64,000 bases of DNA from contig CACAQC010000001.1 in assembly GCA_902534495.1 (NCBI GenBank), positions 91,741 through 155,740 on the forward strand. Reading direction: 5' to 3'. The translations under genes and the position numbers were made by a program. The notes under the pieces are model-generated. The model ran no database searches and was not told the origin of the DNA. It saw only the letters and a list, made by a program, of their open reading frames with translations. Below, piece by piece: positions 3,523 through 40,498 of the stretch. How positions within the stretch are numbered: the stretch's first letter is position 1; each line of letters begins with the position of its first letter. The DNA is from an uncultured Candidatus Actinomarina sp. GTDB lineage: Bacteria; Actinomycetota; Acidimicrobiia; Actinomarinales; Actinomarinaceae.

Positions 3523-4384
3523 ATAAATAATTCCTTGGATTGTCACCAGATTCAAATTGATCTCGATAATTTTCAAGATATTTCTTTGCCGACCTTGATA
3601 AGTTCTGTGGTGGAGAAATAAATACTTTTACAAACAAATCTCCTGGCCTTCTGCCTTGCGGTGCAATTCCCTCCCCACGAATTTTAAATGTTTTGCCACT
3701 AGGTGTGCCTGAAGGAATTTTTAAAGTAACTGATTTTGTTAATGTTGGAATTTTTATACTTGCTCCTAAAGCAGCTTCACTAAAAAGTAAAGGTATTTGT
3801 AAAATTAGATCCATGTTACTTCTTTTAAAATACTTATGTGGCTCTACTGACACTTGTACCAATAAATCACCATCAGGTGCTCCTGCTGCTCCTGGACCAC
3901 CCCTGCCTCTAAGTCTTATTACACTTCCATTATCAACACCTGCAGGAACTTTGATTTTAATAGACTCATTTTCAACGGGAAGAACAACTTCAATCCCTGA
4001 AGCTGCTTCCATAAAAGATATATTTATATTGGTTTGATATGTCTGACCCTTTCTTCTGCCCCCAAAGCCAAAAATATCTCCTAAGTTTTCAAAAATATCT
4101 CCAAAGTCATCAACAGTAAATCCTTGGCTTGTAAAACCACCAAACCCTGAACTACCCATTGTTCTCATTTGGTCATATTCTTGACGCTTTCTTTCATCGC
4201 CAATCACAGCATGTGCTTCTGAAATTTCTTTAAACCTTTTTTCTGCATCAGAATTATTAGGATTTAAATCTGGATGATTTTCTCTAGCAAGCTTTTTATA
4301 AGCTTTTTTAATTTCTTGTTTAGTAGCATTTTGGGGTACGCCAAGCGTGGCGTAAAAATTTTTATCTAACCAGTCTCTACTCAC
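3515..4384 (-). CDS. dnaJ: J-domain co-chaperone, DnaJ/CbpA-like (class II, no zinc-finger domain)
   Basis: GTG start. It has a J domain with HPD (YKKLARENHPDLNP), a G/F-rich linker and two C-terminal beta-sandwich substrate domains. No CxxCxGxG repeats are present in the 289 aa. Confidence 0.85.
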   Translation of the reverse strand: MSRDWLDKNFYATLGVPQNATKQEIKKAYKKLARENHPDLNPNNSDAEKRFKEISEAHAVIGDERKRQEYDQMRTMGSSGFGGFTSQGFTVDDFGDIFENLGDIFGFGGRRKGQTYQTNINISFMEAASGIEVVLPVENESIKIKVPAGVDNGSVIRLRGRGGPGAAGAPDGDLLVQVSVEPHKYFKRSNMDLILQIPLLFSEAALGASIKIPTLTKSVTLKIPSGTPSGKTFKIRGEGIAPQGRRPGDLFVKVFISPPQNLSRSAKKYLENYRDQFESGDNPRNYLYE

Positions 4385-6666: not shown

Positions 6667-6697
6667 TTTGAACTATCCTCTCTTAAATTTTTTTTAT

Positions 6698-6901
6698 TTA
6701 TAAACTACGCTCTTGCTCTCTTGGCAAATGTCCTCTTACCCTCGGATAGGAGACAGGTGCGTGAAGAAAACAAAATTTCTTTTTGTTATATACGCTTATC
6801 ACTGTTTCACAAGTATCAAATGCGCATACTCTACCTGTTGTGTATTTTTTTGATCTCCTTACACCAGGCTTAACTTGTGATGCAGTTAATGTTCCGCTCA
6901 T
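6698..6901 (-). CDS. Small basic Cys/His protein (67 aa), putative zinc-ribbon-like; first gene of the dnaK operon
   Basis: ATG with AAAGAGGA SD. The stop lies 31 nt upstream of the dnaK GTG. The pattern C-x4-C-x12-C-x2-H occurs in RVCAFDTCETVISVYNKKKFCFLH. I recognise no family. Confidence 0.45.
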   Translation of the reverse strand: MSGTLTASQVKPGVRRSKKYTTGRVCAFDTCETVISVYNKKKFCFLHAPVSYPRVRGHLPREQERSL

Positions 6902-6940
6902 TGTTTACCATCCTCTTTATCTATGTTATTATATATATAT

Positions 6941-6964
6941 AATCTAAGCATAATTACTTAGATT
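6941..6964. promoter_or_regulatory. Perfect inverted repeat AATCTAAG-N8-CTTAGATT, candidate operator (HspR?) in the dnaK-operon promoter region
   Basis: Read directly: 8-bp arms with an 8-nt spacer. It lies about 40 nt upstream of the small ORF start and just downstream of a minus-strand TTGCAT-N16-TATATT promoter-like pair. Confidence 0.4.
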
Positions 6965-7065
6965 TGTTTATTAATATATCATACTCATAAATTTATGCAA
7001 ATAAATTTTATAAAAAGATAAAAATATACAGTTTTAGAAATTATTGAACCACCTGATACTATTGA

Positions 7066-14598: not shown

Positions 14599-15639
14599 AT
14601 GAGATTAACAGAGTACTCACATGGTGCCGGTTGAGCATGTAAACTCTCACAAAAAGAGCTTGCTCAGGTACTGACGCATTTTAAACAACAAAATAATTCA
14701 GACACTTCAAAAATCTTAGTTGGATTAGATTCGCCTGACGACGGGGGTGTAATTGATATTGGTAATGGAATCAAATTAGTCCAAACCGTCGATTTTTTTA
14801 CACCAATATTAGACAACCCTTTCGATTGGGGAAAAGTTGCAGCTGCGAATGCATTGTCTGATATTTATGCAATGGGTGGAACTCCTGTATCCTCTTTACA
14901 ACTTGTTTCATGGCCAAGAGATGATTTAAGTTTCGAAATACTATCAGAGGTTTTAAAAGGTGGCTTGGAAATCATGCAGAGTGCTGGATGTAACATAATT
15001 GGAGGACACAGCATCGATGATAAAGAGCCCAAGTATGGTTTTGCAGTAACGGGAATAATTAATGAAGTTATCTATAAAAAAAGAAACCTTCAAGTTGGTG
15101 ATAAACTTTTTTTAACAAAACCTCTAGGTTCTGGAATTATCTCTTCTGCAATAAAAAAAAATATAGCGAGTGAAAAATCGATATCTGAAGTAACAAAAGT
15201 AATGTCAACATTGAATGACAAAGCACTTGAAGTTGCCAAAGAATTAAATGCAAATGCTATTACAGACGTGACAGGTTTTGGACTATTGGGACACCTAATT
15301 GAAATGGTTGGAGATTCAAGTGTGACAGTAAATATTTATTTGGAAAATGTACCTGTCATTGAGTTCGCAAAGGAATATTTTAACAATGGTATTTATCCCT
15401 CAGGTTCGAAAAGAAATTTTGATGCTGCCAGAGAAAATACAAACTATGACATTGATCAAGAATATTTTGTTAAAATTTTGTCAGATGCTCAAACAAGCGG
15501 AGGGTTACTGTTCTCAGCACCAAGTGATGATTCAATAAATATAGATGATATATGCAAAAGATTCGGAGTAAAAATTTGGGAAATTGGAGATATTGTTTCT
15601 AAATATAAAAATAAAGTCAATATCATTAAAGACAAATGA
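14599..15639 (+). CDS. selD: Selenide, water dikinase (selenophosphate synthetase), Sec-containing: in-frame TGA at 14632-14634
   Basis: ATG at 14599 follows AAAGGAGG. The translation MRLTEYSHGAG-[TGA]-ACKLSQKELAQVL...VIDIGNGIKLVQTVDFFTPILDNPFDWGKVAAANALSDIYAMGGTP is in the same frame as, and continuous with, track ORF 14854..15639. There are no other stops. The TGA sits at the SelD catalytic Cys/Sec position (E. coli ...YSHGAGCGCK). Confidence 0.85.
14632..14666 (+). other. Candidate bacterial SECIS hairpin starting at the UGA
   Basis: TGAGCA (14632-37) pairs with TGCTCA (14661-66). The upper stem is CTCT (14644-47) with AGAG (14555+100 region, 14655-58), plus an A42-T60 pair, around a 7-nt loop CACAAAA. 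I folded this by eye only. Confidence 0.4.
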
Positions 15640-39407: not shown

Positions 39408-39734
39408 TTATTTCATTATAGGCAGTTGACCACTATCAGATTTATTAGAAATTTCTTCTTCGGCAATAATCTGAGATTCTCTTACTGCTAAAACAACTTT
39501 TCCAGTTGGTGGCCATATAAACTTCCATGCACCACTTGCAACTGCCCAAAATTGATTTCCAGAATCAACATCAATTAAAGGCAGTGCCTCAGAAGTTTTT
39601 TCGCTACCTGCCGGTACTAATAAGCCTGACTTAGTAAAAGTCTCTTCTCTTAAGTGACCTACTCTCCAACCTGGCGAAACTTTAAATCCCGGCGGTGCGA
39701 AATCAATGTTGTCCAAGGTATTTTCTTCTGTCAT
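39408..39734 (-). CDS. Hypothetical 108-aa protein, possibly a divergent Cpn10/GroES-fold protein
   Basis: By eye, PGWRVGHLREETFTKSGLLVPAGSEKTSEA and the tail KVVLAVRESQIIA parallel GroES (P.GDRV.V...E.T.GGI..P...KEK ... VLI..ESDILA). The middle is unlike canonical GroES and no groEL is adjacent. Confidence 0.4.
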   Translation of the reverse strand: MTEENTLDNIDFAPPGFKVSPGWRVGHLREETFTKSGLLVPAGSEKTSEALPLIDVDSGNQFWAVASGAWKFIWPPTGKVVLAVRESQIIAEEEISNKSDSGQLPIMK

Positions 39735-39769
39735 TTTCTTATATTAAACATAAAAAAAGTATAAATTAG

Positions 39770-39861
39770 CGGAGGTGGACAGGAATCGAACCTGCCAAAG
39801 ACTTTTACACCTTTCAACAGTTTTGAAGACTGTGGAGCCCACCAGGCGCTCATTCACCTCC
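39770..39861 (-). tRNA. selC: tRNA-Sec (anticodon UCA), 92 nt without CCA
   Basis: The reverse complement is GGAGGTGAATGAGCGCCTGGTGGGCTCCACAGTCTTCAAAACTGTTGAAAGGTGTAAAAGTCTTTGGCAGGTTCGATTCCTGTCCACCTCCG. The acceptor pairs GGAGGTG with CACCTCC and has an extra eighth position. The anticodon arm is ACAGT-CTTCAAA-ACTGT, so the anticodon is TCA. The variable arm is about 20 nt. The T-arm is GCAGG-TTCGATT-CCTGT. It is not in the ORF track. Confidence 0.85.
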
Positions 39862-39913
39862 AATATTAAGACTAGTTATATAAAAAATTATTATTGGAAT
39901 AGAATTAAACGTA

Positions 39914-40498
39914 ATGAAAAGTTTTCAACAAACATTTAATGAACTTAAGAAAGCAAGAGGATTGAGCAATAAACAGATTGCTTCATTTACCGGTGTAAAA
40001 CTTAAGGATGTAAAACAATGGGAAACTGGTACAAGTTTTCCGAATGAAACTAAGGTAGTCGATGCACTAGAAGGATTATTGGGTACTGAAATTAGCAAAT
40101 CACTAGAGGGATACACTTCCCAAAGTAAAGTAAATAGTCAATTAAAAACTTCAGAGGATAATATTTTTAAAGTAAAAAATGAAAAACTAGATGTTACAAA
40201 TACAAAAATTGATAAGTTACGATACTTGCTTCAAAAGCAACCTCAAAATACAACGGACTATGAATTTGATAACGAAATTGAAAACATAACAGATGATTAC
40301 TATTTTGAAGAAGATGCAAATACACCTTTAAAAGAAATCTTAGAAAAACCATATTTATACGATGAAAATCAACTAGGCTTCTATTTTTCAAGAAATTTAA
40401 AAACCCTATGCCTACTTTCTGTTTTAGGTTTAATCATTTTCAGTTTTTTTCAACTGTTTTGGGATTCCTTTAACTTATTTATAGATAACTTACTGTGA
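39914..40498 (+). CDS. Membrane-anchored XRE-type HTH protein
   Basis: N-terminal HTH (LKKARGLSNKQIASFTGVKLKDVKQWETG), an acidic middle, and a C-terminal TM helix (LCLLSVLGLIIFSFFQLFW). It has a 4-nt overlap with ctaA. Confidence 0.55.
   Translation: MKSFQQTFNELKKARGLSNKQIASFTGVKLKDVKQWETGTSFPNETKVVDALEGLLGTEISKSLEGYTSQSKVNSQLKTSEDNIFKVKNEKLDVTNTKIDKLRYLLQKQPQNTTDYEFDNEIENITDDYYFEEDANTPLKEILEKPYLYDENQLGFYFSRNLKTLCLLSVLGLIIFSFFQLFWDSFNLFIDNLL

Follow-up and report, generated by a model that had tools for sequence, protein, structure and literature searches.

A conserved tRNA-Sec(UCA) gene upstream of hflX in Candidatus Actinomarina and the non-standard eighth layer of its acceptor stem

A stretch of 64 kb from an uncultured Candidatus Actinomarina sp., hereafter the window, carries on its minus strand a tRNA-like sequence with the anticodon UCA that was noted as unlisted among its genes. 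The question raised by this locus is whether it encodes a working selenocysteine (Sec) tRNA and, if so, how its acceptor stem is built, since the eighth position of the stem is not a standard pair. Among free-living marine bacteria, the host is one of the smallest and most abundant. An annotation that lacks selC has selD as a truncated gene beginning downstream of its in-frame UGA, and would likewise miss or split selenoprotein genes elsewhere in the genome. Our reading, to which we assign a probability of about 93%, is that the locus is the functional selC of Candidatus Actinomarina, encoding an actinobacterial-type tRNA-Sec(UCA). The gene as such is already known, because standard tools detect it and a preprint reports selC for the genus. 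What is added here is the conserved core site across the order, the lineage-typical character of the mismatch and the frequency of a non-standard eighth layer among environmental tRNA-Sec.

The gene reads GGAGGUGAAUGAGCGCCUGGUGGGCUCCACAGUCUUCAAAACUGUUGAAAGGUGUAAAAGUCUUUGGCAGGUUCGAUUCCUGUCCACCUCCG and spans 92 nt through the discriminator G (Table 1), with G1 at 39861, A8 at 39854, the anticodon U-C-A at 39826–39824, G66 (G48 in the standard numbering) at 39796, C84 at 39778 and the discriminator G73 at 39770. Within the 64-kb window, ARAGORN calls a tRNA-SeC with the anticodon tca at 39769–39861 of the minus strand, and the Rfam family RF01852 matches 39771–39861 of the same strand over its complete model (positions 1–91 of 91) with 75.4 bits and an E-value of 1.2e-13, the gathering score being 47. 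Where related families of the Rfam tRNA clan overlap, only the best match is retained; RF01852 survives this selection, and therefore the Sec model is the best description of the locus. An earlier note, made from the letters alone, had claimed a 92-nt tRNA fold on the minus strand, which is borne out by the sequence and by both programs, and had described it as the only RNA gene in the window, where neither ARAGORN nor Rfam detects a second one. The checks that this note had proposed gave concordant outcomes: ARAGORN in Sec mode returns the tRNA-SeC call, the Sec covariance model scores far above its threshold and wins the competition within the tRNA clan, and a comparison with related genomes, described below, places the gene at the same site in nearly all of them.

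Table 1. Coordinates of selC and of the associated features in the window.
Feature	Position	Strand	Evidence
selC, tRNA-Sec(UCA) gene	39770..39861	-	ARAGORN, Rfam RF01852, sequence, conservation in 24 relatives
-10-like hexamer TATAAC, candidate selC promoter	39875..39880	-	Conserved block upstream, inferred only
selD (selenophosphate synthetase), 346 codons	14599..15639	+	Translation, alignment with E. coli SelD, TIGR00476
Candidate SECIS hairpin UGAGCA...UGCUCA, apical stem CUCU/AGAG	14632..14666	+	MFE fold

All of the structural elements that had been noticed at the outset, namely a 7-bp acceptor stem with one extra position, a long D stem, the CUUCAAA loop, a variable arm of about 20 nt and the T arm, are present in the gene. 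Its acceptor stem comprises seven Watson–Crick pairs followed by the A8/C84 non-pair. The D stem, GAGC(G)CC/GGGCUC, forms six pairs with one bulged G and closes on the 4-nt loop UGGU; the anticodon loop is 7 nt long, carries UCA and is unchanged in 24 relatives; the extra arm places 20 nt between the anticodon and T stems, with a stem of 5–6 bp; and the T arm is GCAGG-UUCGAUU-CCUGU. A helix of 13 layers, formed by the acceptor and T stems, defines tRNA-Sec, ordinary tRNAs having 12. With 8 nt between a 5-bp T stem and G73, the helix of this gene also counts 13 layers, either as seven standard pairs, A8/C84 and five further pairs or as 7 + 6, while the eight Watson–Crick or wobble acceptor pairs of the 8/5 helices of E. 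coli and Aquifex are not formed. The linker base G66, the equivalent of G48, is present and invariant among the Actinomarinales relatives. CCA is not templated, the bases after the discriminator being CUAAUU.

For comparison with E. coli, the selC sequence used was checked against 5425 E. coli genomes, in which the best matches listed are 100% identical and annotated as tRNA-Sec. The earlier remark that the anticodon loop and T arm nearly coincide with those of E. coli selC is accurate, since the loop is identical and the T arm (GCAGG-UUCGAYU-CCUGU) deviates by a single loop base. The two genes further share G73, the G48 equivalent, a 6-bp D stem with a 4-nt loop, a long extra arm, a length of 92 nt to the discriminator and the 13 layers. 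However, E. coli has C-G at layer 8 where the window gene has A.C; the latter also has one bulge in the D stem, an extra arm that is shorter by one base and a C.U non-pair at the outermost position of the anticodon stem, and CCA is templated in E. coli only. Bulges in the D stem are frequent in bacterial tRNA-Sec (PMC3711452).

Species-representative genomes were scanned with the HflX of the window, the best match being 99% identical, which places the window in Candidatus Actinomarina (OCS155, order Actinomarinales). The gene order sigA-ctaA-xre <> selC-hflX-gnd, in which the two halves diverge, is kept in 25/25 related genomes, selC aside, and 24 of these genomes have a tRNA-SeC directly upstream of hflX, with RF01852 scores of 70.8–77.7 bits. 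The neighbourhood of selC is a conserved core across the order. While HflX ranges from 69 to 99% identity to the window protein in the selC-bearing Actinomarinales genomes, 78 of the 92 selC positions are invariant. On the cloverleaf, 92.8% of the cells pair among the 13 distinct selC sequences, a value reached by no shuffle. Changes on both sides of a pair occur in the T stem at 69:81 (AU/GC), in the anticodon stem at 29:45 and 31:43, and in the extra arm at 53:60; stem changes are mostly compensatory or wobble-compatible, with 29:45 non-paired in three sequences. The invariance and the compensatory changes together therefore present the pattern of a working RNA gene and not that of a relic.

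The one genome of the 25 that stands apart, L023, is a more distant Actinomycetota MAG (HflX 65% identical) in which xre <> hflX is kept and selC is absent; the spacer at 3894–4001, 106 bp long and AT-rich, is a natural empty site, where selC was either lost or, in this lineage, never gained. A templated CCA (GCCA) follows the acceptor stem in L016 and L017 only; the window and all other relatives read GCUA, and therefore the tRNA depends on a CCA-adding enzyme.

The second line of evidence comes from selD. Its in-frame UGA is codon 12 (14632–14634; translation MRLTEYSHGAG*ACKLS) and, in an alignment with E. coli SelD (PDB 3u0o), falls opposite the catalytic Cys17 (HGAGCGCK). When read through, SelD reaches 361.8 bits on the TIGR00476 equivalog, for which the cutoff is 125, with the match beginning at profile position 1. 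The position of the UGA and this score uphold the earlier proposal that selD is recoded with Sec, which selC supports from a distance measured at 25.1 kb, close to the 25 kb first estimated. A readthrough scan of the window, which asked for 150 or more codons and a long flanking piece, yields selD as its sole candidate and no other selenoprotein gene. The sole gap of more than 120 bp (6667–7065) contains no plausible UGA-containing ORF, and with genes filling all the rest of the window, a small selenoprotein gene could hardly be accommodated. At least eight window genes end in TGA, and the next TAA or TAG follows only 3 to 53 codons on; UGA is therefore a working stop codon here.

The candidate SECIS hairpin directly at this UGA belongs to the MFE fold, with a z-score against shuffles of -0.6, which is not significant alone. 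None of the best 40 of 63 variants from four marine metagenomes falls within 14606–14683, i.e., the first 28 selD codons around the UGA, whereas the flanks vary at many third positions. Such a gap in variation would fit constraint on both the protein and the RNA (SECIS), although it is only suggestive.

Two other readings of the locus need to be weighed against a functional selC. The gene could encode a SelB-independent opal suppressor, i.e., an allo-tRNA-like tRNA-Ser(UCA) or a selC*-type tRNA-Cys(UCA), which would insert Ser or Cys. The anticodon UCA would suit such a role, and with its non-standard eighth layer the stem could act as one of 7 bp, a length that EF-Tu accepts; a long extra arm, a long D stem with a tetraloop and, in some members, UCA are indeed features of the allo-tRNAs and selC* tRNA-Cys (PMC5389517). 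However, the acceptor/T branch of the allo-tRNAs has 12 layers, arranged as 8/4 or 9/3, against 13 in the window gene with its T stem of 5 or 6 bp, and the discriminator of selC* tRNA-Cys is U73 in place of G73 (PMC5389517). In the Rfam clan competition, the Sec model also outscores that for tRNAs in general, UGA serves as a stop throughout the window, and the sole internal UGA falls exactly at the Sec/Cys site of SelD. A suppressor is accordingly very improbable in our judgement. Even less credence is due to the view that the Sec trait has been lost and the gene is a decaying remnant, recognisable and unused. The empty site of L023, from which the gene is missing by loss or was never acquired, would agree with it, but the 78 invariant positions next to an HflX of only 69% identity and the largely compensatory or wobble-compatible stem changes, the three sequences non-paired at 29:45 notwithstanding, argue against decay. 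Moreover, selD retains a UGA that would abolish SelD if the tRNA were lacking, and about five selenoproteins are predicted per genome (10.64898/2026.04.03.716425).

One point against the functional reading is the non-standard eighth layer, since binding by SelB in E. coli relies on an acceptor stem of 8 bp. The mismatch, which the earlier note had called unusual, is real: each of the 13 distinct selC sequences from Actinomarinales carries A.C at 8:84, and all five bases involved in the alternative folds considered below are invariant within the order, for which reason the sampling was widened to metagenomes. The scan pattern fixed the D loop, the anticodon loop and the T loop only, and 93 distinct clean 13-layer tRNA-Sec among the matches listed constitute the sample, which is biased by the search pattern and by the limited number of matches listed. 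In these listed sequences, layer 7 pairs in 93/93 and the first T-stem pair forms in 91/93, whereas layer 8 is a standard pair in just 27/93; the non-standard combinations include U.C (36), G.A (14), G.G (5), A.C (4) and A.A (3). The description of an A-C eighth position as unusual is therefore not upheld, layer 8 being non-Watson–Crick in 66 of the 93 listed metagenomic tRNA-Sec. Despite its bias, the sample shows that environmental tRNA-Sec commonly have a non-standard eighth layer, and it suggests that the textbook "8 bp" acceptor is often one of 7 bp followed by a non-canonical layer.

Among the listed sequences, a clade of 39 shares the acceptor stem (GGAGGYG.../...CRCCUCC) and the T stem of the window gene. 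Its loci mostly have 60–75% G+C, one of them being an Actinomarinales contig of 31% G+C. The high-GC clade is probably of the actinobacterial type, judging from its G+C content and from the mycobacterial 5' sequence, GGAGGCG, as given in the text of PMC13449736, on which the mycobacterial membership of the clade rests. Layer 8 is N.C in 37/39 of the clade members listed, with position 8 being U, A or C and never G, and in the D arm 38/39 have an additional base within the 5' half, which is read as a D-stem bulge. Position 8 is A in Actinomarinales, whereas it is mostly U in the high-GC members (33/39 listed). Taken at the level of sequence, the A8-C84 non-pair thus appears to be the norm for actinobacterial-type tRNA-Sec, a lineage-typical trait rather than a defect.

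The known architectures for the acceptor stem with the T stem are 8/5 in bacteria and 9/4 in archaea and eukaryotes. For the window gene, nearest-neighbour energies amount to -33.3 kcal/mol for a 7/6 fold, -31.2 kcal/mol when A8, G66 and C84 are left unpaired, and -27.0 kcal/mol for a 9/4 fold. The 9/4 fold, which would contain A9-U83 as the Rfam consensus aligns the gene, was rejected because positions 9 and 83 are pairable in only 17/93 of the listed tRNA-Sec and because its energy is worse, by 6.3 kcal/mol relative to 7/6. Between 8/5 with a non-canonical A.C pair and 7/6, sequence alone cannot decide and leaves roughly even odds.

In the 7/6 fold, C84 would pair with G66 to yield an acceptor stem of 7 bp and a T stem of 6 bp, A8 would become part of a connector of 3 nt leading to the D stem, and the extra arm would continue directly into the T stem, so that the function would be the same and the anatomy another. 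G66-C84 is chosen by both the MFE and the centroid folds, with a pairing probability of 0.945, and 7/6 has the lowest energy of the three. In the clade of 39, C84 is kept in 37/39 listed members and 66:84 is pairable in the same proportion, with G excluded from position 8. A 7-bp acceptor and a 6-bp T stem have been proposed for all mycobacterial tRNA-Sec, which start with GGAGGCG (7 + 6 = 13 bp), albeit from drawn secondary structures only (PMC13449736). The window gene resembles this type in its acceptor start, GGAGG(C/U)G, and in its T stem, GC(G/A)GG/CC(C/U)GU, which is preceded by G and followed by C and can likewise be drawn as 7 + 6; in mycobacteria, however, selC lies beside selA-selB and selD (PMC13449736), while in the window it is located upstream of hflX and 25 kb from selD.

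Several observations speak against 7/6. G66 is G in 92/93 of the listed tRNA-Sec whatever the base at 84 (C 44, A 23, U 14, G 12), and hence there is no covariation for this fold. Instead, it is positions 8 and 84 that are correlated across the sample, as expected for facing positions, with U84 accompanied by A8 in 13/14, A84 by G8 in 14/23 and C84 by U8 in 36/44 of the listed sequences. Within Actinomarinales, the invariance of all five bases gives no variation from which to judge. In the Aquifex crystal structure, moreover, G48 takes part in the conserved C15:G20a:G48 base triple and not in a T-stem pair, and this triple is the reason for which the linker G48 is fully conserved in bacterial tRNA-Sec (PMC3711452). 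On balance, we put the 7/6 fold at slightly less than an even chance. The broader proposition that actinobacterial tRNA-Sec, the window gene included, represents a third acceptor/T architecture of the 7/6 type is a little more doubtful still, and we advance it tentatively. If 7/6 is true, the linker G48 would become part of the T stem and the D-stem connector would lengthen to 3 nt, and this shift would accompany the divergent SelB reported for Actinomarina. The choice between 8/5 and 7/6 is a question for actinobacterial tRNA-Sec generally.

Neither selA nor selB lies in the window, in which no searched ORF matches a SelA domain or shows a SelB-like architecture. Exact-match searches with the proteins at the window edges returned no contig extending it. 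A lack of the two genes in the genome had been named in the earlier note as evidence against selC; their presence rests by citation on one preprint, in which selC, selA and selD are reported in 84/84 complete Actinomarina genomes and selB in all 84, the latter being divergent and below the profile threshold; it also predicts about five selenoproteins per genome and a Sec-form SelD of 342–346 aa with an MRLT prefix (10.64898/2026.04.03.716425). Its table gives chromosome fractions of 0.10–0.11 for selC, 0.077–0.083 for selD and 0.87–0.93 for selA. The first two correspond to a selC–selD distance of about 0.023–0.026 of 1.1 Mb, or approximately 26–29 kb, compared with 25.1 kb in the window, and selA would be located about 200 kb from selC on the other side of dnaA (10.64898/2026.04.03.716425). 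The genus, the gene, the SelD form and the selC–selD spacing agree between the preprint and the window. The preprint reports presence only, as detected by tRNAscan-SE, and is silent on the fold, the eighth layer, the D-stem bulge and the synteny with hflX.

The preprint places selC inside a hypervariable region in 32/84 genomes (10.64898/2026.04.03.716425), in contrast to the same core neighbourhood found here in all 24 genomes bearing selC. In the rows of its Supplementary Table 8 compared here, those marked "selC in HVR = Y" give selA, selC and selD at about 0.09–0.11, 0.89 and 0.91, respectively, which mirror (as 1 - x) the 0.87–0.93, 0.10–0.11 and 0.077–0.083 of the "N" rows (10.64898/2026.04.03.716425). 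As far as these rows go, the mirrored positions imply that the hypervariable-region claim may be an artefact of genome orientation.

From these components, a pathway can be proposed. Transcription of selC would start from its own conserved -10-like element and possibly continue into orf108, a small reading frame described below, and hflX. The ends of the tRNA would then be trimmed and CCA would be added after transcription, because it is untemplated. SerRS would charge the tRNA with serine, for which the identity elements G73 and the long extra arm are present. SelA may subsequently convert Ser to Sec with selenophosphate from SelD, the 6-bp D stem and 4-nt loop that it recognises being present with one bulge. 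SelB would bring the Sec-tRNA to UGA codons that precede a hairpin, e.g., selD codon 12, while the 13-layer helix would serve SelB and exclude EF-Tu. These roles of the extra arm with G73, of the D stem and of the 13-layer helix are as reviewed in PMC7609411. A tiny, abundant, free-living marine bacterium that keeps the whole Sec apparatus therefore needs selenium, a point already made for Actinomarina (10.64898/2026.04.03.716425).

The candidate promoter element TATAAC is part of a conserved block, TTTTTATAYAAYTAGTCTTA, and is situated 14–19 nt upstream of the mature 5' end of the tRNA. The block is kept in all related loci compared, with the hexamer reading TACAAT in other clades, and the rest of the spacer varies. 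A scan of the minus strand around selC for consensus -35/-10 promoters and terminators returned no full match, and TATAAC is accordingly put forward as a candidate. Contigs from two marine metatranscriptome runs cover selC, some with zero differences from the window and others with variants known from sister lineages. The selC sequence is present in RNA libraries, which is not proof of function, as such assembled "RNA" contigs may include DNA carry-over, their depth is a poor measure and they are silent on charging.

Some observations concern the genes around selC. As a possible attachment site for an island or prophage, selC was considered and rejected: the window holds no second copy of the tRNA 3' end with up to three mismatches, the flanking core genes are syntenic in 25/25 genomes, and the XRE-like protein has only weak matches to phage regulators. 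Between selC and hflX, a 108-aa ORF (orf108; 39408–39734, minus strand) ends with a stop codon that abuts the hflX start. It occurs in the 13 closest genomes only (L001–L013), with 83–100% amino acid identity, whereas in L014–L025 selC lies about 50 nt from hflX without it. Its product has no match in Pfam even at an E-value of 10, nor in NCBIfam or PHROG, and its single-sequence AlphaFold model, with a pLDDT of 41, is unusable; the spacings between orf108 variants in the metatranscriptome contigs are nevertheless divisible by 3, as in a true coding gene.

On the other side of selC, the divergent gene at 39914–40498 of the plus strand encodes an XRE-type HTH protein, which is by far the fastest-evolving product of the neighbourhood, with 40–95% identity across genomes whose SigA is 93–99% identical. 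Its start codon is 52 bp from the tRNA 5' end, and therefore the two promoters must overlap.
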